The notes under the pieces were generated by a model that saw nothing but the letters and a program-made list of their open reading frames with translations, was not told the DNA's origin and did no database searches. The translations under genes and the position numbers were made by a program. DNA of 64,000 nucleotides from contig CALNZI010000007.1 in assembly GCA_942491275.1 (NCBI GenBank), forward strand, positions 63,353-127,352. The letters run 5' to 3'. This DNA comes from Minisyncoccota bacterium. GTDB lineage: Bacteria > Patescibacteriota > Minisyncoccia > Phycocordibacterales > UBA9973. How positions within the stretch are numbered: the first letter of the stretch is position 1; every line of letters begins with the position of its first letter. Of this stretch, positions 1-46,745 are shown piece after piece.

Positions 1-884
1 ACCTCAACATTTGGTATCATCTCTCTTGCAAAATCCAATTTTTTATCATATTGTCCAGCGATAATAACACCTTTAACATTTTTATCTTTAAAATTAGTTT
101 TTACCCAACCCATATACCTTGCTAGTTGCCCCACCGTATCATCACTTGTTTGATTTCTCTTTAATTCAATAACAACATAAGATTTGGTTTTTTTATCCTT
201 AACTAGAATATCAATTGGGCCAATTTCTGTTCTATACTGCTGACTTAAAAGTTCTCCTTCTTCAATTATTAAATCATATTTTTTACCAAGCTCTGTGTTG
301 TCCCAATTATGAATAATAAAATCTTCTAATTGTTTTTCCATATAGAATAATCCCTGATTCATTTCATTTACAATAGATGAAGTTGAAGATGGAACAGAAA
401 GAATTTTTTTATAATATTCTACAATAATATCAAGGTCGGAGTTTAAGTCTGTTTCGCTAGTTTTATTCTGTGAATCTGAATAGATATAATTAACTTTGTT
501 TTTATTAACTTCTATTTTGTAAGCTTTAAAAACGAAAGAATCTCCATACCGTGGAACTTTCTTGTCAAAGAAAGCATTTATCGTTGGAGCTGAATTCATT
601 ATTTCGGCTGGCCACGACTGTGGAGCAACTTCTGTTTCGCTAACACCGTAAGCTAAAATAAGTGTATGTATGTCCTTGTAGTAAAGATAAACGGGATTAA
701 TACCACGACTTACTTCTTGTCCTTCTGCTCGAATTCCAATCCAAGGTATCCTAGCAGGGGTTCCCATACCAAAAGAAGCTTTCATATTTAATCCATTCCA
801 CTCTCTAGAGTAAGGAGAGGTTTTTAGGTTATTAGTTTGTGCTTGTAAGATAAAACTGTTGAGTATTTCTTGTAATGATTTCAT
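1..884 (-). CDS. Type IV-like (modification-dependent) restriction endonuclease, N-terminal DUF3578/MrcB-like DNA-binding domain plus PD-(D/E)xK nuclease; 3' end runs off the window
   Basis: Reverse translation from the ATG at 882-884 gives MKSLQEILNSFILQAQTNNLK...GMGTPARIPWIGI, which resembles the MrcB_N/DUF3578 family. Downstream, IGPIDILVKD...YVVIELKR fits a D...ExK nuclease core. The ORF is absent from the ORF track because it is truncated by the window edge. Confidence 0.5.
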   Translation of the reverse strand, partial: MKSLQEILNSFILQAQTNNLKTSPYSREWNGLNMKASFGMGTPARIPWIGIRAEGQEVSRGINPVYLYYKDIHTLILAYGVSETEVAPQSWPAEIMNSAPTINAFFDKKVPRYGDSFVFKAYKIEVNKNKVNYIYSDSQNKTSETDLNSDLDIIVEYYKKILSVPSSTSSIVNEMNQGLFYMEKQLEDFIIHNWDNTELGKKYDLIIEEGELLSQQYRTEIGPIDILVKDKKTKSYVVIELKRNQTSDDTVGQLARYMGWVKTNFKDKNVKGVIIAGQYDKKLDFAREMIPNVE

Positions 885-885
885 T

Positions 886-1032
886 TTATTCTTTAATATT
901 ATTTATAAATTTATCAAATTCTTCATCTACAACTTTTTGACAAAGAATCCTTATAATACTAATTCTTTCAAGCACTTTTTCATCTGGAGCTTCTTCGTCT
1001 TCCATTATTTTTCTATATTCTTTAATGTTCAT
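886..1032 (-). CDS. Small 48-aa ORF immediately upstream of, and 1 nt from, the type IV-like gene; possible small regulator
   Basis: Minus-strand ORF MNIKEYRKIMEDEEAPDEKVLERISIIRILCQKVVDEEFDKFINNIKE. Its stop lies 1 nt before the next ATG, so it looks operon-coupled. It is below the ORF-track length cutoff. Confidence 0.3.
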   Translation of the reverse strand: MNIKEYRKIMEDEEAPDEKVLERISIIRILCQKVVDEEFDKFINNIKE

Positions 1033-1099
1033 ATTAAACTATTATTCTTTGTGGACCTCCTTTTATAACAAGAATTTGTATTAAAATATATTTTTGAGT

Positions 1100-1339
1100 T
1101 TAATCTTCTTCTTTTATGAACAACTGAACATCCTTGCCGTATTCTTCTATTACCTGTCTTCTCGCGTGAATTTTTGCGTTCTCTAGCGCTTTTTCTTTAG
1201 AATTACATACACCCTCTTTAATACTTAGACTATACGGGGTAAAAGTTGTAAGACCCCCTTCGCTTTTTACGAATTCGAACTTAGGAAGAAATTTCCCATC
1301 CTGCAAAGAAATAGAAGATATCAGCGCATATATTTTCAT
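1100..1339 (-). CDS. Hypothetical protein, weak HicB/UPF0150-like antitoxin resemblance
   Basis: 79 aa; ...GGLTTFTPYSLSIKEGVCNSKEKALENAKIHARRQV resembles the HicB motif (GGY.a.vPdLPGc...G.T.EEAlenA.eai). Confidence 0.3.
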   Translation of the reverse strand: MKIYALISSISLQDGKFLPKFEFVKSEGGLTTFTPYSLSIKEGVCNSKEKALENAKIHARRQVIEEYGKDVQLFIKEED

Positions 1340-1384
1340 AATATGAATTATACTATAATATCTTAATTTTGTTATACTACCAAT

Positions 1385-2749
1385 ATGGGCAAACCAACTA
1401 AAACAATAAAGGAAAAATTAGAAACAAAGTTATCTAAACTTCGTAAAGATGAAAATATAAAGATTACCAAGAAACAGGTAAAGGTGAACAAGCATATCCT
1501 TTTTAGGTATTCAACCAAGGAGATTGCATATACAAAAACTCGTTATTTTCCTTCTTTAAAAGAAGATATAAAAGAAGAAGATTTTACCGCTGTAATATTG
1601 CTTAAACACAATACTTTGAAATTTATTTCTGGTAATATGTGTAATCCGCCCAGAGGGGTAAAGAAAGTTATTGATATGGCTCGTCATTTGAGTCCTAAAA
1701 TAAATAAGATTATCGTTGGTGTAGAAAAAAATGAAATCAAAGGAGGTGTTGTATATATGACTGATGATTTATACCTAACCCTTGTATCAATCAACAAAGA
1801 AGAAGGGGTAGATAAAGTAACAAGAGTGAGAAATAGAGTTGCCCCTTTTCTTAAAAAACACTACAAATTAGAGTCAGAAGAGGAAAATACTGAACGAGAT
1901 TATTCTTTAATGCTTCAAGAAATTATTGCAACTAAAAAAATTTCTCAGAAAGATATCGCTGAATTAACAAGTGAACTCGATGGAGGTGAATATAATGAGG
2001 TTGTAATTAGAAAACAAATTAACAAACAAGCAGAATGGTTATTAAATTCTATCCAAACAATAGTTGATGAACCCGATCTACCAAAACCAAAAGCTCAAGA
2101 ATTAGGTGATAAATTTTTTAATTTCCCAAAAACAAGTATTTCAGGCCCAGAAGATTTAATGGAAAAAATTTTAACAAAGTATGGTCAGAATATTATTTTT
2201 GGGGTACCTGCCTTATTAAATATAAATAAATATGTTATATCCTCCACTGGGTTACCTAAATCACAATTTGATATTCTACTAATAAATCATTTATCAGATA
2301 TAGAAATAGTTGAGTTAAAACGTCCTGATGAATATTTATTAGAATATGATGCAAAAAGGAATAAATTTTATATATGCAAAACACTAGCGATAGCAACAGC
2401 TCAATCAGAACGTTATATCTCTGCAATACTTAAAGATAATGATAATGAATTCAAAATTAACGGTAAAACAATTCGTGAATTTATACAATCACAAGTAGGA
2501 GATACAATAATACTATCAATTTGTAGACCGAGAGCTTTAATTATTATTGGGACAATACAAAAAATAGCTAAACCCTACAAAGATTTAAACTCAGGAGAAA
2601 AAGTAGGAGTTTCTAAAAAAGATTATGAAAAGAACTTAGAAACAGCTTACAAAGAGCTGAAAGCTTCTTTTAGAAATATAGAAATAATAACATATTCAGA
2701 ACTTCTAGAAGGGGCAAGATTAAGACTACAGATTGCAAAAAATAATTAA
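1385..2749 (+). CDS. PD-(D/E)xK superfamily nuclease, candidate Shedu-like (DUF4263-type) defence protein
   Basis: 454 aa. The C-terminal half has FDILLINHLSD-IEIVELKRPDE (D...ExK) followed by TAQSERYI (QxxxY). This is the RecB/Cas4/DUF4263-type nuclease motif set, preceded by a long basic variable N-terminal region. Confidence 0.4.
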   Translation: MGKPTKTIKEKLETKLSKLRKDENIKITKKQVKVNKHILFRYSTKEIAYTKTRYFPSLKEDIKEEDFTAVILLKHNTLKFISGNMCNPPRGVKKVIDMARHLSPKINKIIVGVEKNEIKGGVVYMTDDLYLTLVSINKEEGVDKVTRVRNRVAPFLKKHYKLESEEENTERDYSLMLQEIIATKKISQKDIAELTSELDGGEYNEVVIRKQINKQAEWLLNSIQTIVDEPDLPKPKAQELGDKFFNFPKTSISGPEDLMEKILTKYGQNIIFGVPALLNINKYVISSTGLPKSQFDILLINHLSDIEIVELKRPDEYLLEYDAKRNKFYICKTLAIATAQSERYISAILKDNDNEFKINGKTIREFIQSQVGDTIILSICRPRALIIIGTIQKIAKPYKDLNSGEKVGVSKKDYEKNLETAYKELKASFRNIEIITYSELLEGARLRLQIAKNN

Positions 2750-2751
2750 AT

Positions 2752-3456
2752 TTAAATCCTTCTATTAATCAGATTCTCCTGATGAGTTTGAATCATTTGT
2801 TCTAAATAATTTTTCCAGTTAAAATCATCAAATATAGACTTAATTAATTCACGGCTTATTTCAAGGTGATTGGTTGCTATGTTTTCTTTTTTAATTTCAT
2901 AGTCTACTTTAACTTTAGGCATCCTGCAAATATACCCAGCATTAAAAGAAAAAATAGATGAACTAAAAATTGATTCAAGTTCTCTATCTCGGGTATTGTT
3001 AATTTCTATGGTAAGGTTGCCACCCTCGATATTTGTATTTTCAATTAAATTTTTTACAAATAAAACAATCTCCGTTATTTTATAAATAAGCCCAAGAAAA
3101 TCTAAATATTTTCCTTTTTCGAGTGGTTCTCCACGTAATTCACCAAGAGTATCCTCTCTTAATGCAAAAATAGAAAGAAATTGACCACTTTGATAAAAAC
3201 GAGATATTTCTATTATCCCTTGCCACGATACATAAAATTCCACCCCATTTCCTATAGAATAAGGTCTTTTCCCGTCTTCCTTATCTTCTATTGGAATATG
3301 AGGAAAGCTCCAACCCCTTAAATTTACTTTGGATTTTTCTAAAACCTCTGAGAGATTTTTCTTTGAAATACGATTCCCATCATAAAACTTTGGTTCAAAA
3401 ATAACCTTCACATTACCTATTCTTTTTAATTCTCCTTTGATTTCTTCTACACTCAT
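2752..3456 (-). CDS. Hypothetical protein, translationally coupled partner of the AlbA_2/Schlafen-domain gene
   Basis: 234 aa with no recognisable motif. Its start overlaps the stop of the upstream gene 3460..4101 (ATGA-type coupling). Confidence 0.4.
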   Translation of the reverse strand: MSVEEIKGELKRIGNVKVIFEPKFYDGNRISKKNLSEVLEKSKVNLRGWSFPHIPIEDKEDGKRPYSIGNGVEFYVSWQGIIEISRFYQSGQFLSIFALREDTLGELRGEPLEKGKYLDFLGLIYKITEIVLFVKNLIENTNIEGGNLTIEINNTRDRELESIFSSSIFSFNAGYICRMPKVKVDYEIKKENIATNHLEISRELIKSIFDDFNWKNYLEQMIQTHQENLINRRI

Positions 3457-3459
3457 AAT

Positions 3460-4101
3460 TTATTCAAAACCCTTTCTTTCTTTCTCAAAAAGAGATTTGT
3501 CACTTTTAGTAATAATATTCTCTGTCTCGTGCTTCCATCCTCGTTTATGTAAATTGGATATTTGTTTATCAGTAATTCTATCTAAAAAGTCTTGAATATC
3601 TACAGGATTACTTAGTCTAACAGAAGAAGGTTTATCTTTTAAAGTTCTTACATATATTGCTCCTTCTTCTAAAATTTTATCTTTATGTTCTCCATTTCTT
3701 CTACAAACAGAAGGATTTAAAATAAACTCCGCTACACTTATTACTATGTAATTTTTCTTTTTATAAGAACCTAGTCCTATTTCATAGTTAACTGGTGAAC
3801 TGGAAAAAGACTCAACTTTGGCTTTCAAATTTTCTACATTAAAATCAGACAAGTGTTCCTTTTCTATTCCTGTGAAATCTAAAGTTCTATCTTTTTTTTC
3901 TTTTACTCCAATAACTATATATCCACCATCTCGTATGTTAGACATAGCAAAAATTGAACGTATTAATTTTTCTCTCATCCATACATCAATTTTTAAATCA
4001 AAACCTGATTTAAATTCGACGTTCAAGCTCTCAGCATTTCCTTGTAGCACTTCTTGGATTTTATTTTCAGGTAGTTCTTTCATAGCTATTTCTTTAAACA
4101 T
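3460..4101 (-). CDS. AlbA_2 / Schlafen-like (divergent AAA) DNA-binding domain protein
   Basis: ESLNVEFKSGFDLKID...LIRSIFAMSNIRDGGYIVIGVKEKKDRTLDFTGI matches the AlbA_2 (PF04326) signature (E.e.lEfK......i.k.i.AfaNt.GGyl.iGv.d.g.i.G). Confidence 0.55.
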   Translation of the reverse strand: MFKEIAMKELPENKIQEVLQGNAESLNVEFKSGFDLKIDVWMREKLIRSIFAMSNIRDGGYIVIGVKEKKDRTLDFTGIEKEHLSDFNVENLKAKVESFSSSPVNYEIGLGSYKKKNYIVISVAEFILNPSVCRRNGEHKDKILEEGAIYVRTLKDKPSSVRLSNPVDIQDFLDRITDKQISNLHKRGWKHETENIITKSDKSLFEKERKGFE

Positions 4102-4285
4102 CTATTAATTTCTATTATGGTAACCATATTTGAATTATATCTTTATATGAAACAAAGTAAAGTTTAATTTTCCCATATTATAGTAAGGTCTTATAAAACA
4201 CCCCCTATCATCCCTTAAAATGACAAAACCTTGCAAAATAAGAATATCCTGTAAACAAGTATGATAATAAATGATAAGATTATGT

Positions 4286-4534
4286 TTATATTTTATCTTC
4301 TTTATTATCAAGACTGGGGTATTTTATTTTAGGTTCTTTAAAAATTCTATCCAGCTTAGATTGTATGTATTCCAGATAATTCAATTTACTCATTATTCCA
4401 TCTTTTCTTCCATACCCAAATAAACCACTTTTAAAATAATTTAATAAATTAATAATTTTTAAAAACCTTCTAAGAACTAGGTGGAGTTGAGTTACTATTA
4501 TGACCAATAAAATTATAATTAATGTTTCTTTCAT
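4286..4534 (-). CDS. Small hypothetical membrane protein
   Basis: 82 aa with an N-terminal hydrophobic helix (LIIILLVIIVTQLHLVL). Confidence 0.3.
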   Translation of the reverse strand: MKETLIIILLVIIVTQLHLVLRRFLKIINLLNYFKSGLFGYGRKDGIMSKLNYLEYIQSKLDRIFKEPKIKYPSLDNKEDKI

Positions 4535-4562
4535 AGTATTTATTAGCTAGAATACAAAAAGC

Positions 4563-4668
4563 TCCTAGCCAGCGATAACCCGAGGATTATCCATATCCGT
4601 TTCCAGATATGACGCAATCAAGCGTGAACTCTGACTAGGAGTTCTTTATTCTTGATTGCGTTTTTGAC
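4563..4668 (+). ncRNA. Candidate structured RNA or terminator-like element
   Basis: An 11-bp stem (ctcctagccag 4563-4573 / ctgactaggag 4631-4641) and a second 10-bp stem (cgcaatcaag 4613-4622 / cttgattgcg 4651-4660) interleave in a pseudoknot-like or alternative-structure arrangement. The second stem is followed by a T-run. Confidence 0.2.
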
Positions 4669-4745
4669 CATATCTTAGAGAAGTCTCTAAGGGTTAGGTC
4701 TCTTATTTACTTGTAATTGAATAATACCAGTATTCGGTCTTTTTG

Positions 4746-4994
4746 TTAATGTCTTTTTACTCTTCTTTCAGTTAAGATGTGTAACTTTAAAGCAGTAGAA
4801 AAATAATAAAGACAAGGGTTCCTTATAATTTGTTTAGCTTCAAGAGGTGTTATTTTCATAGTTATTCCATTAGCGCAATAGTAAAACTTTCTATTTTTTC
4901 TAATAACTTCTGTCTTATACTTAAAGAGGTCACAATTGTGAATTTGAGCTATATTACTTTTAATAAGCCTAATATTTAATTTAATTATCTCCAT
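4746..4994 (-). CDS. Hypothetical protein
   Basis: 82-aa ORF, basic, no motif. Confidence 0.25.
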   Translation of the reverse strand: MEIIKLNIRLIKSNIAQIHNCDLFKYKTEVIRKNRKFYYCANGITMKITPLEAKQIIRNPCLYYFSTALKLHILTERRVKRH

Positions 4995-5513
4995 AAAATT
5001 AAAAAATTCCTCTACTAATGAGGAAAGATAGCCGACTAATTATCTTTCCCTTACAGGCTGAATGAAGCACTTTGCTATTTCTAGTAAGTTGCTGGAGGGT
5101 CATAGAGTCAGTTCTCTCGCCTCGCTCTTGATACACGTATTTAGTTGTAATTAAATTATAATCTAAAATTTATATAATAGCAAAAAGTGTCTATTTATTA
5201 ACATTTTATACACAAATATTCTCCACTTCCTTAAATCAGAGATTTTTATTTGTATGCTATAATATAAGTAATTGAGTTCTTTGAATATTATAACTAAATC
5301 TAGCAACAACTACTGCTTGGCTCGCAGTTTAAAAATTGCCTTAAATTGGTTTAACTAGATAAAGTTTTGGATAATATTGTGAAGTAAGTGAGGATGAGGG
5401 GAGCTCAACCCCTAAAAATGATTCAAGTCAGCATCAACTAACTGTGTAAGATTAGACCAAGATAACAAAAATACTTATGGTGTTTTGTTATTTTAGTCTA
5501 GTTTTAGCACAAA

Positions 5514-5548
5514 ATAAAAACACCTAATAGAATGGGTGTTTTTATTTT
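5514..5548. terminator. Rho-independent terminator hairpin (bidirectional A/T flanks)
   Basis: aaaaacacc-taatagaat-ggtgttttt. Confidence 0.5.
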
Positions 5549-5682
5549 TCTAAATTAAATAAAAATATCGTGTTTAATTTACCGACATTTAAAAGTCCTT
5601 TTATGGCTTTGTAGGTCGTCTTGTCGGTAAACCTACATAGCCATAAGAGGATTTTGTTCTTTATAAACTAACTTATACAAAA

Positions 5683-5910
5683 ATGCGAAGTATAGAAAGA
5701 AAGTTTAAGAAAATTAAATCTTCTAATCCCTACTTAGGAGCATATCCTTGTCTGGTGCAGGCAATCAAAAATAAGAATTATGTAAGAAGGTCTCTCCTTA
5801 ATGCTTTCAAAAAACTTATGCCCGATGACGAATATGCTAAAGATGAAAAAAAAGAACTTGTTGATTATCTAGAGAAGATGACTAAACCCTCTGAGGAGGA
5901 CGAATTTTGA
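5683..5910 (+). CDS. Hypothetical small protein
   Basis: 75-aa ORF. Confidence 0.3.
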   Translation: MRSIERKFKKIKSSNPYLGAYPCLVQAIKNKNYVRRSLLNAFKKLMPDDEYAKDEKKELVDYLEKMTKPSEEDEF

Positions 5911-6541
5911 ACTAAATTTCGTCCAGGAAGCATTTAAAAAAGAAAAATGGAACTAAGTTCAAATGCAAAAAAAGACCTTCAAGAAACCTTTAAATTAGAA
6001 ATAAATCTAGAAAATTTAAGTGATGAAGAATTAAACAAAATTGGTTTATTTTTACTTGAGATTTATGGGCAAGGATTAAAAAGAAGGAGTCGTTTAACAA
6101 TTTAATATCTAACACAGCTTTAGGGGGAATGCTGTATAAACCACTCCTACACCTAAAACAATAAGTAATAAATTGGGTTCAGATGCGATAGCTTGGAAAA
6201 ACAGTTGCTTTACACCGTTTAAAATGTTAAATCATTTTGCTCTGTCCGAGCCATTTGATTTGAATCTAATTTGTTAATTATAAAAAGTAAATTCTAAAGG
6301 TAATTGTACTTGTTTATAAATAGATATTAATAAATATTAACTATAATTAATTACCTAACCCCGTAAAGGAATCAAAGGTAAAAGGGGTGGACTGTATCTA
6401 AAATAAGCAAAATTTTATAATTAAATAAGCCAGACTAAATGAAGATTCATAAGCCGTTTTAGAAATGCTTGTGAATAAAAACGAGGTAACAACCATTTAG
6501 TCTGGCGATTAAGTAAAGTTGTTGCCTCATTTTTATTTATT

Positions 6542-8221
6542 ATGGAACAAGTAGATTTTAAAAAATTAAAACCGGGTAATTATAATCGTAAATCTTCAGA
6601 AAGTGAAGATAGGCAAGTTTTATCAATTCAATCTCAGATTGATGAAGCTAACAGAATAGCAAGCTTTTATCAATTACCTCCTTTTATAGAAGTTTTTAAA
6701 GAATCCAAATCGGCTAAAACAGAATATCTGAGACCAGAATTTTCTAAGATGATGGCGATGATAGAGAGGGGAGATATAGACTCAGTAGTGTGCTGGAAAC
6801 CAGATAGACTAGCTAGAAATATGACTGAAGGTGGGCAAATAATTGATGCTCTAAGTTCTGGAAAGATTAAAGCTATTATTACTCACGATAAAGTTTTCTA
6901 TCCTTGGGATAACGTAATAGTTTTAGCGGTTGAATTTGGTCAAGGAAAACAATTTATAAAAGAATTGTCAGTAAATGTTAAACGTGGACAAACAAAGAAA
7001 GCAATGATGGGTTATCCTCACGGGCTATCTGCTCTTGGTTTTAAAAATGATAGAACCGAAGAAAAAGGTAATCGTAAATGGTTAGTTGATGAAATGAGGT
7101 TACCAGTAATAAAAGAAATGTTAAAAATGTTTTTATCTGGAAACTATTCAGGTAGCCAAATTTATCTTTGGACTAGGGATAATGTAAAATTAACAACCCC
7201 TAAGCATAAAAAGATTGGAGGGGCATTAATTAGTTACTCTAGAGTATATGAAATTCTTAAAGACCCAATATATGCTGGATTCTTTTATTACGGAGGAAAA
7301 AGGTATGAACTTACAAAAGAATTACCAAGACTAATAACCGAAGAAGAGCATAGAAAAATTTTAAGAATGCTCTCTGGTAGAGCTTTGCCTAAGACACAAA
7401 TCTATGAAAGTCCTTACTCTGGCTTTGTAAGGTCTCCTGACGGTGAGTTTGTTGGAGTTGATATGAAATGTCAAATTATTTGTGAGTGTAAATATAAATT
7501 TTCATATTTAAATAAAACTAACTGTCCTAAATGTGGCATAAAAATAGATGAAATCAATAGCCCTAAATACTTAAATTATTCCTATTATTACAATGTCGCA
7601 AAAAGAAAAAGGAGGGAGTCTGTGAAATACATTGAGGAGGGCGAAATAACGAGCTTTTTTCGCTCATACGTTGAGAAAAATCTAATTATGTCTAAATCAT
7701 TAGCTGAGTGGTGTAAAAGGCATATACAAGAAATTAAGGATAAGGAAATTCAGATTGGATTGGTGGAATCTACTAACAACACCAAAAGAATAGAGCAATT
7801 AGAAAAACGTAAAATCCGATACAGGGAAATGCTGGCTGATGGTCAGATTGATTCAATTGAATATGAAATAGATATTAAAAAAATAAAAGAGGAAATTAAT
7901 AAAATCAATAATTCAAAAAACAAAACTAACGATTGGCATAAAGTAGCTAATGATATTATAGATTTAACTACAGAGATGATTGAAACCATAAACGGGGACT
8001 CAATAAAAGATAAAAGAAGTATGTTAACAAGACTTGGTTCGAACCTAATCTGGAATGAAAAAAAACTCAATATTATCAACACAGAAGCAGTTCAAAAGCT
8101 TATAGATGGATTAAATAAGACTAAACAGATAAATCCTAAGTTCGAACCTAAAAAAACCCTTGCAAACAAAGATAAAACAGAGGTTTTTGCCTCTGTTTGT
8201 TCTACTTTGCTCCGTGGGTAG
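6542..8221 (+). CDS. Large serine recombinase (resolvase/invertase catalytic domain, recombinase domain and zinc ribbon)
   Basis: N-terminal GNYNRKSSESEDRQVLSIQSQ (Y-R-SS catalytic serine motif), ...DRLARN, a long recombinase domain and a CxxC...CPKCG zinc ribbon. The stop codon overlaps the 3' end of tRNA-Asn. Confidence 0.8.
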   Translation: MEQVDFKKLKPGNYNRKSSESEDRQVLSIQSQIDEANRIASFYQLPPFIEVFKESKSAKTEYLRPEFSKMMAMIERGDIDSVVCWKPDRLARNMTEGGQIIDALSSGKIKAIITHDKVFYPWDNVIVLAVEFGQGKQFIKELSVNVKRGQTKKAMMGYPHGLSALGFKNDRTEEKGNRKWLVDEMRLPVIKEMLKMFLSGNYSGSQIYLWTRDNVKLTTPKHKKIGGALISYSRVYEILKDPIYAGFFYYGGKRYELTKELPRLITEEEHRKILRMLSGRALPKTQIYESPYSGFVRSPDGEFVGVDMKCQIICECKYKFSYLNKTNCPKCGIKIDEINSPKYLNYSYYYNVAKRKRRESVKYIEEGEITSFFRSYVEKNLIMSKSLAEWCKRHIQEIKDKEIQIGLVESTNNTKRIEQLEKRKIRYREMLADGQIDSIEYEIDIKKIKEEINKINNSKNKTNDWHKVANDIIDLTTEMIETINGDSIKDKRSMLTRLGSNLIWNEKKLNIINTEAVQKLIDGLNKTKQINPKFEPKKTLANKDKTEVFASVCSTLLRG

Positions 8222-8281
8222 GGATCGAACCTACGACCAATCGCTTAACAGGCGACCGCTCTACCGCTGAGCTACCACGGA
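8209..8281 (-). tRNA. tRNA-Asn (anticodon GUU)
   Basis: Reverse complement folds as a cloverleaf: acceptor UCCGUGG/CCACGGA, anticodon loop CUGUUAA, T-loop GGTTCGATCC. Confidence 0.8.
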
Positions 8282-8485
8282 ATGTTCATTAAACAAACAA
8301 GTTTATACTATCAAAAAAAGACCCGAAATGCAAAAGAATTATAAATTGCCGGGAGAGTATGTTTATTGACAAATTTAAATAAGGATGTTAATGTCGTTAG
8401 TAACAATGTAATTTTTTAAAGTAATTTTATGGGTTCTCGAAGAAGATAAGTTATTATCTTTTATGAAAACCTATAAAATTATTAT

Positions 8486-8761
8486 ATGTCACAATCTAAA
8501 AAAAATGTACTTGTTGTTCAAATCTTTTCAAAAAAATATGAAACATTTTTTGATAGGGATAAACAACAAAGATTTATTTCTGATCCTTATTTTGTAAAGT
8601 TATATGATTTTGGATGCGTTAACGCGATTAAAATTCATAAAGCTTTTATAAATCAAAATTTAACAGAGGAAGAATATCTTCAATTTTTTATTAAATTAGG
8701 GTATTCTATAAAAATGGTCCTTAAGTTATTTCCAGATTTGGAGATTAGAAACTTGTCATAA
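8486..8761 (+). CDS. Hypothetical protein
   Basis: 91-aa ORF preceded by a TTGACA..TAATGT promoter-like sequence near 8366. Confidence 0.35.
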   Translation: MSQSKKNVLVVQIFSKKYETFFDRDKQQRFISDPYFVKLYDFGCVNAIKIHKAFINQNLTEEEYLQFFIKLGYSIKMVLKLFPDLEIRNLS

Positions 8762-8772
8762 TATTTTAAAAG

Positions 8773-8798
8773 CATCCTTAAATTTAGGATGTTTTTTT
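8773..8798 (+). terminator. Rho-independent terminator
   Basis: catcct-taaattt-aggatg followed by ttttttt. Confidence 0.5.
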
Positions 8799-9063
8799 AT
8801 AATAATTTTGCTAAAAAACTTATAACAGGATATAATAAGCTAATCTTATTAATAATATAAATCGTCTGACATTTACGGAATAATGACGAATTTAAGAAAT
8901 ATATGCCCAAAAGAGCTTCCGCGTTACACGCGCACTTAAAATCAAGACATTCTAAGAAAACAAAGAAAAGACTTGCTATTAAGAAAGTTATGTTAGAAGA
9001 AAAGGCTAGTAAAAGAAAGTCAAAATAAACATCAGGCCCGTTGAGGGCTTTTTGTTTATGTGG

Positions 9064-11373: not shown

Positions 11374-11904
11374 ATGGAAAATTTTAAATACGCATTATTT
11401 TCAATTGTAGTTTTGGCTTTATTAACCTTTATTGGGTATTGGGCTTTTTCAAGTATCGAATCTGGCAGTTCGCATTTAAATAATCAAGAAATAAAAGATT
11501 TATCACAAGAAAATAAAGATTTGAAAGATGAAGTTTTAAGTTTAAAAAATGAGATAACAATATTAGAATCTCAAATAAAAGAGCAGATTTATGAAGTTGT
11601 GAAGGAAGATGTTGTGGAAAAGACAGAGCCAACTATTTTAAAATATCAAAGTAATATAGATGCATTACAGAAATTGATTAATGATAAAATCTATATGAAA
11701 AAAGGCTCTAAGGGGTCACGAGTTGGAACGGTTCAAACTTTTTTGAATATTTATAATAAGACTTCAACTAAAATTGATAATGACTATGGGCCAGGAATGG
11801 AGACTTTGATAAAGAAATTCCAGGCAGATCAAAAGATAACTGTTGATGGAGAGGCGGGGCCAGGGACTTTTAAGAAAATGATTGAATGGTTAAAGAAACA
11901 ATAG
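11374..11904 (+). CDS. Membrane-anchored coiled-coil protein with C-terminal peptidoglycan-binding (PG_binding_1) domain
   Basis: N-terminal TM, coiled coil, C-terminal GSRGSRVGTVQTFLN...DNDYGPGMETLIKKFQADQKITVDGEAGPGT. Confidence 0.6.
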   Translation: MENFKYALFSIVVLALLTFIGYWAFSSIESGSSHLNNQEIKDLSQENKDLKDEVLSLKNEITILESQIKEQIYEVVKEDVVEKTEPTILKYQSNIDALQKLINDKIYMKKGSKGSRVGTVQTFLNIYNKTSTKIDNDYGPGMETLIKKFQADQKITVDGEAGPGTFKKMIEWLKKQ

Positions 11905-46111: not shown

Positions 46112-46745
46112 ATGGAAAATACACAAGTAATTATTTTAGCAGCAGGAAAGGGGACAAGAATGGAGTCTGAAGACCCCAAGGTTCTTTCTTTGCTTAAGAA
46201 GAAACCATTTCTAAAACACATATTAGATACTCTTTCTCATTTAAAACTAACCCTTGAGCCGGTAATTGTTGTTGGATATATGAAAGAAAGAATATCTGAA
46301 GTAATTGGGAAAAATTTTAATTATGCTCATCAAAAAGAACAATTAGGAACTGGTCACGCAGTTCTTTCGGCTAAAGACTCAATGCACTCAGACCATAAAA
46401 CAGTTATGGTTATTTCAGGAGACCAACCACTGGTTTCTAAGGGCACTTTAGAAAAATTAATAAAGGTTCATAAAAAGAATAATTCAATGGTTAGTATTGC
46501 TACTGTTAAATTACCTGATTTTAATGAATGGAGGGAGGGAGCTCTCACTTGGGAAGAGTTATAAGAGATGAAAATGGTAAAGTCTTAAAAATTGTTGAAA
46601 ATAAAGACGCCACCGAAGAAGAGAAAAAAATTACAGAAATAAATTATGCTTTGTATGTTTTTGATGGAGATTGGCTTTGGGGAAATATAGATAAATTAAA
46701 AAATGAAAATGCTTTAGAGCAACCAGTGTCAAGTTTGTCGGCGAT
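46112..46745 (+). pseudogene. GlmU-like sugar-1-phosphate nucleotidyltransferase N-terminal domain, frameshifted and truncated at the composition junction
   Basis: [17 protein letters not shown]...GTGHAV...ISGDQPLV, then a frame change near 46530-46550 (a gggaggga run), continuing [24 protein letters not shown]. The AT-rich sequence ends around 46745. Confidence 0.55.

Follow-up and report, generated by a model that had tools for sequence, protein, structure and literature searches.

Known serine-integrase elements and tRNA-associated islands

Prophages and elements that depend on a large serine recombinase (LSR), such as phiC31, Bxb1, A118, TP901-1 and SPbeta with its integrase SprA, are among the closest described systems to the one considered here. 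Characterised serine integrases mostly target protein-coding genes, and the half-sites of the phage attachment site, attP, differ from those of the bacterial site, attB, by an outward shift of 5 bp; LSR attP arms that lack an inverted-repeat relation to one another are unusual. Composite islands of the staphylococcal cassette chromosome (SCC) arise by insertion between a resident element and the target. In the cluster G mycobacteriophages BPs and Brujita, attP lies in the 3' end of a phage gene, and the proteins of the free and integrated states differ in their C-terminus. Integration into tRNA genes has been described as a reaction catalysed by tyrosine integrases (Islander; PMC4383910). The subject of this report is a stretch of 64,000 nucleotides from a Minisyncoccota contig (CALNZI010000007.1), referred to throughout as the window. 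Its bases 1 to ~8209 are read here, with a probability of roughly 0.72, as the right-hand portion of an integrative element in a genome of Patescibacteria (Paceibacteria/Nomurabacteria-like), inserted by an LSR at the 3' boundary of a tRNA-Asn gene.

The locus shares with serine-integrase elements a Resolvase domain, a Recombinase domain, a four-cysteine zinc ribbon and a long C-terminal region, as well as a short crossover without a long duplication and, in one putative attP arm (P', seen in relatives), an outer motif placed 5 bp further out than in an attB-type half-site. Unlike those elements, the window's recombinase family targets the 3' boundary of tRNA genes and appears to carry attP inside the integrase reading frame, so that integration alters the C-terminus; its P and P' arms are asymmetric, and its best identity to a deposited phage is 24.5%. 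As in SCC and ECC elements, which use Ccr recombinases, an LSR inserts at the extreme 3' end of a housekeeping gene that is conserved and stays functional, and brings in variable cargo. Tandem arrays of elements and recombinase-less remnants between direct copies of the site, a further likeness, are seen only in relatives (L021, L005, L008 and L016; related loci are cited by such numbers). The target here is a tRNA gene, however, and not rlmH, and a single LSR at the edge reads into it. The recombinase is not of the Ccr family (39.5 bits against the NCBIfam CcrB model, cut-off 900; 47 bits against XisF, cut-off 375), the host belongs to the candidate phyla radiation (CPR), and the locus also has a LOOT RNA and a riboswitch. 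Islander-type tRNA islands, defence islands and satellites of the P4 and phage-inducible chromosomal island (PICI) kind likewise combine an integrase beside a tRNA gene with defence cargo and tandem islands, and they also resemble this family in small size and in the replication or terS-like genes of some members. In contrast to tyrosine-integrase tRNA islands, the locus has a serine enzyme only, no displaced tRNA fragment or direct repeat, and an unsplit tRNA. In the cluster G phages it is the repressor that is truncated, by the action of a tyrosine integrase, whereas here the serine integrase itself would be the protein affected.

The element is of a known type, borne by an LSR, equipped with defence cargo and placed at tRNA-Asn, and it may be phage-derived or act as a satellite. 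No description of the element family was found in the literature searched. New against that literature are a serine-integrase family of CPR bacteria that specialises in the 3' boundaries of tRNA genes, with attP probably within the integrase gene, and a conserved LOOT RNA adjoining the LSR together with an S-adenosylmethionine (SAM) riboswitch inside the element. A widespread, coherent serine-integrase family at tRNA 3' boundaries occupies a niche that the same literature ascribes to tyrosine integrases. Its candidate attB, attP, attL and attR sequences are explicit and potentially usable as integration tools, and it offers a possible route of defence-island assembly in Patescibacteria, where mobile elements are poorly known. 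A gene-internal attP and a SAM riboswitch in a defence element suggest regulatory switches, and the LOOT RNA gains a genomic home and a testable context.

The recombinase gene and its junction with tRNA-Asn

The features at the right-hand edge of the element are as follows.

6429-6529, plus strand: structured leader of the LSR gene, with two overlapping helices and a U-run before the ATG (inverted-repeat search)
6542-8221, plus strand: LSR of 559 aa, with Resolvase and Recombinase domains (PHROG 'integrase', 3e-41)
8039-8047, 8142-8150 and 8225-8233, plus strand: three copies of the motif TCGAACCTA, the third being the tRNA T-loop (sequence comparison)
8175-8198, no strand assigned: A-tract, hairpin and T-tract of the P arm, within the last 15 codons of the LSR gene (positive in a terminator scan on both strands)
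8208-8212, no strand assigned: TGCTC, putative crossover region and attR junction, at the discriminator base of tRNA-Asn (junction comparison)
8209-8281, minus strand: tRNA-Asn (GTT), intact, the host half (B') of the attachment site (ARAGORN; Rfam, 70.2 bits)

The end of the LSR gene overlaps tRNA-Asn in about 17 distinct orthologous loci in Patescibacteria (L001-L004, L007, L011-L013, L015, the second LSR of L016, L017, L019, L023, L024, L026, L029 and L033), and because of this recurrence the arrangement in the window is not due to chance. In these loci the gene ends in the same succession of A-tract, hairpin, T-tract and CTAYNNTG, followed by the antisense 3' end of tRNA-Asn. The first-pass annotation had noticed that the recombinase stop codon overlaps the tRNA, and it does: the TAG at 8219-8221 lies inside the antisense tRNA, which in the integrated state supplies the final four codons of the LSR gene and its stop. 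Across the loci the open reading frame (ORF) terminates at the first stop that the tRNA offers, the TAG of the T-stem or, where the T-stem reads CAGGG, the TAA of the anticodon loop. Distant LSRs, with 25-35% identity, have the same ending at tRNA-Trp (L042-L044) and tRNA-Gly (L040-L041). Acceptor stems vary among the loci and yet are always perfectly paired, which suggests that the tRNA is entirely host DNA and that exchange takes place at its 3' boundary.

The recombinase is intact, with a full domain set. Pfam assigns residues 14-113 to the Resolvase domain (PF00239, 8.2e-15) and also recognises the Recombinase domain (PF07508, 1.9e-8). In an alignment of nine orthologues R16-K17-S18 is invariant, as expected of a catalytic domain with a serine nucleophile, and so are four cysteines (C314, C316, C328 and C331), in keeping with a zinc ribbon followed by a long C-terminal region; the window LSR keeps all residues that are invariant in the family. 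The Pfam model Zn_ribbon_recom matches the LSRs of L052, L053 and L056 and leaves that of the window unmatched. Orthologues with 50-74% identity were retrieved from genomes and metagenomes, the sources being metagenome-assembled genomes of Candidatus Paceibacterota, Nomurabacteria, Yonathbacteria, Taylorbacteria and Saccharibacteria, and on this ground the host is assigned to the Patescibacteria. A search of 2.9 million viral contigs returned no relative of the family.

Homology of the window to L001 and L002, as found by blastn, is limited to 4494-8286. The genes further left differ in every related locus and are mostly defence genes, and clustering of the genes in the left flanks found no family in common besides those of the shared module. 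None of the ORFs in 1-8209 matches a housekeeping family in Pfam or NCBIfam, which bears out the claim that no housekeeping gene lies left of the tRNA. The right flank, by comparison, belongs to the core chromosome: over more than 12 kb, from ~8893 to past 21.5 kb, it is collinear with L048 and L050, and its helicase is 78-79% identical to theirs. Nothing in L048 or L050 corresponds to 1-8890. A comparison with relatives that have an empty locus had been envisaged, and it could be realised in part: the right flank is collinear and the element region is unmatched, but neither relative has a tRNA-Asn there, and no empty tRNA-Asn site was found among the nearest relatives reachable via the helicase. 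The comparison shows non-conservation, and not a clean empty site. Base composition was considered as a marker of the element and is not diagnostic, with a G+C content of ~0.30 in 1-8000 versus ~0.32 in the flank. Overall, the earlier view that this is an integrated mobile element with defence cargo is supported, since every comparison that was run agrees with it: a conserved LSR-tRNA junction, locus-specific genes to the left and a core flank to the right.

The hairpin of the P arm is retained with differing sequences in 20 distinct loci, and the residues that it encodes vary. Given its terminator score on both strands, 8175-8198 looks like a bidirectional terminator, which would also serve tRNA-Asn by ending its transcript 10 nt past the 3' end. 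The leader of the LSR gene contains the helices GCCAGACTAAATG/CATTTAGTCTGGC and GAGGTAACAAC/GTTGTTGCCTC, both kept in L001 and L002 and with compensatory changes in L001; it may act as an attenuator. Consecutive copies of TCGAACCTA lie 103 and then 83 nt apart, and almost every relative keeps this spacing, even the tRNA-Trp clade with its 25% identity. Copies one and two are translated in different frames, as GSNL and KFEP; although codon usage is AT-rich, their synonymous sites are fixed in 21 of 25 (first copy) and 24 of 26 (second copy) distinct LSR genes. These copies may be additional binding sites for the recombinase.

Two further kinds of sequence were observed next to the junction in relatives. 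In one subclade (L005 11675-11715; L008 8701-8768; the ends of L020 and L022) an ATGYGTACCCC repeat follows the P arm in place of a tRNA or P', and the contigs end 40-125 nt further on. The sequence that follows the LSR in L005 and L008 was considered as an attP and rejected, as none of the left flanks yielded a copy. Some 150 bp past tRNA-Asn, L004 (5983-6160), L002 (11741-11920) and L007 (~11800-11880) have a conserved tRNA-like stretch that begins like the 5' end of tRNA-Asn (UCCGUGGUAGCUCAGCGGUGGAGUGAGGAUUGGGAUGGGACCC...) and is called neither by ARAGORN nor by Rfam. Intron-containing tRNA-Asn genes in Patescibacteria have been reported to be overlooked by standard tools (PMC13011429, 2026).

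Attachment sites and a model for integration

The far attachment site had been expected to be a direct repeat of the tRNA 3' segment. This expectation failed: the window holds no second copy of the 22-mer (up to three mismatches), the left flanks of five related loci contain none of the tRNA 16-mers (up to two mismatches), and the repeat was accordingly rejected as an att signature. Its absence is no surprise: when a serine recombinase acts at the tRNA boundary, no tRNA sequence is duplicated. Instead, the far end would be marked by the displaced 3' tail of the LSR gene.

Evidence for such a tail comes from seven distinct loci in which the same P arm is joined to a sequence termed P' in place of the tRNA. 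There the LSR frame is extended by 12-37 codons with the tail motif ML..(D/E)FRT.DW. The P' arm has the sequence CTCCGNNCTTGGGACGATGTTCGRA and the consensus TGCTCCGNNCTTGGGACGATGTTCGRA. P' resembles the 3' end of the tRNA (CTCCG...GGGA...TCGAAC), with TCGAA lying 5 nt further from TG. In L021 a second copy of the tail is found 7.6 kb upstream of the LSR in direct orientation; it starts exactly at ATGCTC and 26 of its 33 aa are identical. L002 has a P' site 9.5 kb upstream of the LSR, beside a DRT2 gene, with a score of 31 versus a shuffled maximum of 10. Two to four copies precede the LSR in L005 and L008, and L021 has an array of six, all intergenic. Almost all strong P' sites left of an LSR are on the plus strand.

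A position matrix built from the relatives' sites scores these at 17-40 bits, with a maximum of 10 for shuffled sequence. Over 1-46000 of the window its maximum is 7.8, at 6238, which is within the shuffled range, and this position was rejected as a P'-like site. Since the window lacks a P' site while relatives have one 7.6-9.5 kb upstream, the left end of the element probably lies outside the window. The earlier statement to this effect is consistent with the absence of a P'-like site above noise in 1-8209, but it is unproven.

All junction types (P|tRNA, P|P' and X|P') have TGCTC in common and no other sequence, and exchange would be confined to within it. A crossover in the tRNA T-loop was rejected, as the 3' strand of the acceptor always matches the 5' strand of the host and non-tRNA junctions diverge right after TGCTC. 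In the model suggested by these junctions, the attP of the circular element would lie inside the 3' end of the LSR gene and consist of the P arm (A-tract, hairpin, T-tract and CTAYNNTG), the TGCTC crossover and the P' arm. Recombination at the tRNA boundary would leave the tRNA untouched and give it a new trailer and terminator. Integration would remove the last 12-37 codons of the LSR gene and carry the tail-coding P' arm to the far left end, where it would form attL; the element in the window would then be bounded by a P' site left of base 1. Repeated integration at one tRNA could build tandem stacks of elements and remnants, and loci in which the LSR is joined to P' would have received a second element between the resident element and the tRNA, as may be the case in L021 and in L016, which has two tandem LSRs, the second at the tRNA.

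L016 also holds a perfect 120-nt inverted repeat of P' (11667-11790, plus strand; 18000-17881, minus strand) around 6.3 kb between its two LSR genes, and the P arm of the second LSR is duplicated and inverted as well. This inverted repeat looks like the product of an LSR-mediated inversion.

Points against the element and alternative explanations

Several observations weigh against reading 1 to ~8209 as the right-hand part of an integrative element. For the window's own element neither an excised circle nor an empty attB nor a left end has been observed, and no visible gene accounts for its transfer between cells. The P arm and P' do not form an inverted repeat, so that only the comparison of junctions places the crossover. 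The L021 sites inside a cargo operon and the inverted pair of L016 imply that the sites do more than one simple integration. The two nearest relatives, L048 and L050, do not qualify as true empty sites, and LOOT is followed by heterogeneous genes.

Some of these points would fit other explanations. The 8.2 kb could belong to a complete temperate phage, as its end for integration, morons and defence, with the structural genes left of the window; LOOT does occur on IMG/VR contigs with terminase, ParB-methylase and LSR genes, and the L001 element has a terS-like gene, GP3_package. Such a phage is unlikely, given that the LSR family is unmatched among the viral contigs, stays at or below the 24.5% identity already noted for deposited phages, and belongs to elements that, where relatives have candidate left ends, span only 7.6-9.5 kb and have no capsid or tail genes. 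Less likely again is that the island is an immobile remnant, now fixed, whose LSR persists without function or in another role. The lack of an attL in the window and of any polymorphism seen would suit a remnant, and the LSR-less cassette arrays of L021, L005 and L008 show that decay occurs; yet the LSR is full length with every family-invariant residue, the module keeps 69-75% nucleotide identity to L001 and L002, non-coding parts included, which indicates selection, and several metagenome contigs break 40-230 bp past the LSR, as would fit heterogeneity of the population at the junction.

The arrays bear equally on a cassette platform, integron-like or invertible, in which the LSR would capture or shuffle single cassettes, each flanked by P'-like sites, behind a LOOT-headed promoter. 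The six sites of L021, all on the plus strand and intergenic, do split units of one or two genes, several of them lie inside the LOOT-headed leftward gene run, and the 120-nt P' pair of L016 is inverted around 6.3 kb. Tandem accretion accounts for the arrays equally well, however, the window's cargo (1-4100) has no such site, and the insertion point implied by the junctions adjoins the tRNA and not LOOT; this platform is given a still lower probability than the remnant. Least credible of the four is that tRNA-Asn travels with the element and that the true right boundary falls between 8282 and ~8890. Synteny with L048 and L050 begins only at ~8893, with no tRNA-Asn upstream of their helicase, and the tRNA-Asn-5'-like fragment of L002, L004 and L007, ~150 bp beyond the tRNA, could be read in the same sense. 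Against a travelling tRNA, the homology of the window with L001 and L002 ends at 8285/8286, at the tRNA 5' end, the sequences after the tRNA differ in every locus while acceptor stems vary between genomes, and the seven loci with non-tRNA partners join them to the P arm exactly at the tRNA 3' boundary. An element inserted by its LSR at the tRNA-Asn 3' boundary remains the preferred explanation.

The shared module and the LOOT RNA

The module of 3.7 kb that the window shares with its relatives (4494-8209) comprises, leftward, a SAM-I riboswitch, a small ORF and a LOOT RNA and, rightward, two small ORFs, the structured leader and the LSR gene. The first-pass annotation passed over the 2.4 kb between cargo and LSR, which contain the LOOT RNA, the riboswitch and three or four conserved small ORFs. 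On the minus strand the order is riboswitch, 82-aa ORF, LOOT, 82-aa ORF, AlbA_2 gene and 234-aa ORF.

4286-4534, minus strand: ORF of 82 aa with a hydrophobic N-terminus, the first after LOOT (ORF list)
4555-4710, minus strand: LOOT RNA (RF03000; Rfam model at 4574-4700) with a conserved 3' extension ending in UUUUUG
4721-4749, minus strand: promoter-like site just upstream of LOOT, TTAACA, 17 nt, TG-TATTAT (consensus match only)
4746-4994, minus strand: ORF of 82 aa, family F17, between riboswitch and LOOT, 63% identical in L001 and without a family match
5007-5183, minus strand: SAM-I riboswitch, with a promoter-like site at 5183-5155, the aptamer at 5137-5037 and an antiterminator/terminator at 5036-5007, then U6
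5683-5910, plus strand: small ORF F3 of 75 aa, found upstream of the LSR in many relatives
5947-6105, plus strand: small ORF F2 of 52 aa, found upstream of the LSR in many relatives

LOOT is listed in Rfam as a metagenome-based small RNA (PMC7779021); the literature searched gives no host, function or context for it, only a metagenome-derived motif. Here it stands beside LSR genes in Patescibacteria elements and phage contigs. The window copy scores 76.7 bits with RF03000 (gathering score 46.4), and LOOT was found in all distinct loci with sufficient left flank except L007 and L008, with full-length matches of 69-95 bits and strong covariation. A model built for this analysis finds LOOT in 15 distinct copies; among them, compensatory change is seen at 35 of the 36 base pairs, and the share of paired cells is 93.9%, versus 30-41% in slid controls; G-U pairs support the modelled strand. 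A 3'-extended alignment made blind to structure revealed an additional helix of 16 pairs (97% paired, 12 compensatory) that lies outside the Rfam model. In it, AUAAAGAAC and the 5' strand at the tip of P3 pair with the flank ...GGNGCUUUUUG; in the window this brings 4555-4571 together with ~4632-4648. This helix crosses P3 and would thus form either a pseudoknot or an alternative fold.

LOOT always lies on the strand of the adjoining gene run, 20-70 nt ahead of its first ORF, and the run usually diverges from the LSR module. Searching viral contigs (IMG/VR) with LOOT patterns alone recovered five true copies, scoring 77-106 bits. On three of the five contigs an LSR of another clade (426-444 aa) lies 0.15-2.8 kb away, and in two of these three LOOT is divergent from it. 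Genes on the five contigs include terminase (L052 and L055), ParB-methylase (L052, L055 and L056), a KAP/PifA-like gene (L052), GmrSD (L053) and AlbA_2 (L056).

Two functions proposed for LOOT were rejected. As a guide or bridge RNA of the IS110 kind it would be expected to pair with the att sites, but across 13 loci LOOT and att share no complementary stretch longer than 5-7 nt, the same as in shuffled controls. As a riboswitch for one class of gene it does not suit the heterogeneity of its downstream genes, among them small membrane ORFs, DUF805 and, in several loci, a trypsin-like protease. No downstream partner recurs apart from Trypsin_2 (Pfam), in the first gene after LOOT in L003 (6710-8029), L016 (2900-4993) and L030 (5109-6092); the proteins of L001 7113-8126, which has no Pfam match, and L025 16318-17205 cluster by BLAST with that of L003. 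In the weakest step of the model, LOOT would have its own promoter, head the leftward gene run and serve as a regulatory leader or small RNA of that operon. The best guess is that it acts as a promoter-proximal regulatory RNA through antitermination, attenuation or immunity, a position at the head of an operon that recalls the RNA immunity factor of P4.

A more far-reaching and tentative proposal, to which we give rather less than even odds, is that LOOT partners serine-integrase elements and phages of the CPR, that the C-terminus of the LSR reports the state of integration, and that the tRNA boundary is a platform for the accretion of defence genes. If so, LOOT would control the cargo or early operon or the recombinase itself, and the LSR would have a long tail when the element is free and a shortened one when it is integrated. 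The regenerated tRNA boundary would let defence islands grow cassette by cassette, in a lineage with few known mobile-element mechanisms.

The SAM-I aptamer is marginal, with 48.3 bits for RF00162 against a gathering score of 44.4, and the homologous positions score lower (43.2 bits in L002 and 29.9 in L001). A terminator scan placed the terminator UUCCUC-N7-GAGGAA-U6 at 5025-5007, and the antiterminator pairing GAAAGAUA/UAUCUUUC was read by eye. Control of a gene for SAM or methionine metabolism or transport, as is usual for SAM-I, was not recognised: the downstream ORFs are unassigned and differ between the window and L001 on one side and L002 on the other, the homologous sites of L002 and L001 preceding unrelated ORFs. 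It is pure speculation that the riboswitch ties cargo expression to the level of SAM, for example to its depletion by a phage SAM lyase.

The small proteins of the module (F2, F3, F17 and F78/F28) had no informative match in Pfam, PHROGs or NCBIfam; F2 and F3 are candidate regulators or a candidate directionality factor. L002 has an ORF of the same size as 4286-4534 at the same position after LOOT, without significant similarity. In the divergent region upstream of the ORF at 5683-5910, three more inverted repeats or hairpins lie at 5447-5548 and 5580-5667; one is a perfect 14-bp stem (AAAATAAAAACACC), and another gave a spurious match to a microRNA family.

Defence cargo

The genes left of the module in the window are listed below.

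1-884, minus strand: type IV-like restriction protein, MrcB_N (DUF3578) with a NucS_C-type PD-(D/E)xK domain (Pfam, PADLOC)
886-1032, minus strand: ORF of 48 aa, translationally coupled to the restriction gene (TAA, one base, ATG of the next gene; AAGGAGG upstream)
1100-1339, minus strand: ORF of 79 aa without a family match
1385-2749, plus strand: Shedu-like gene of 454 aa with an SduA C-terminal nuclease domain (DUF4263; Pfam, PADLOC)
2752-3456, minus strand: ORF of 234 aa that immediately follows the AlbA_2 gene within one operon, after a gap of 3 bases (ORF list)
3460-4101, minus strand: Schlafen/AlbA_2-domain gene of 213 aa (Pfam SLFN_AlbA_2, 5.8e-11)

Most of the functions first proposed for these genes hold. 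The type IV-like restriction enzyme is confirmed by MrcB_N (5e-9) and NucS_C (1.5e-14); PADLOC gives PDC-S02 at 7e-42, and the N-terminal part of the NCBIfam McrB model matches at 7e-22, below its cut-off. The N-terminal 294 aa are visible, the C-terminus lying past the window edge. In place of the AAA+ GTPase and McrC partner of McrBC there is the N-domain only, fused to PD-(D/E)xK, and the gene is best described as the PADLOC candidate system PDC-S02. The coupled 48-aa ORF, whose stop lies one base ahead of the restriction gene's ATG, was also correctly recognised; it has no family match in Pfam, PADLOC or NCBIfam. The Shedu-like nuclease stands with marginal scores (SduA_C PF14082, 2e-6, 28.5 bits versus a cut-off of 27; PADLOC SduA, 3.7e-8). 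Of the supposed pair of Schlafen/AlbA_2 genes, 3460-4101 has the domain but 2752-3456 has no match in Pfam, PADLOC, NCBIfam or PHROGs. The HicB-like label of the ORF at 1100-1339 is not upheld, as the same four libraries gave no match and no HicA was found.

Related loci carry DRT2 (PADLOC, 2e-126), NERD with UvrD (3e-79), a type I restriction endonuclease (4e-125) and PD-T7-5 (6e-21), and further cargo includes HsdM, HsdS, a TIR-domain protein, methylases and a large STAND-like protein. Some relatives have instead genes for replication or packaging (Prim-Pol, AAA_25 and terS-like). In L002 the DRT2-type defence reverse transcriptase (2123-3830) begins ~350 nt after the candidate attL (P'), and the non-coding RNA of DRT2 would be expected in that interval.

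The distal part of the window

The G+C content of the window stays at ~30% up to ~46.7 kb. Between 46700 and 46900, a span of 200 bases, it rises from ~0.32 to 0.55-0.66; the junction, near 46716-46725, interrupts a low-GC ORF mid-gene. The last 17 kb, to 64000, look like a different genome, in a chimeric contig or joined sequence, which leaves the finding at tRNA-Asn unaffected.

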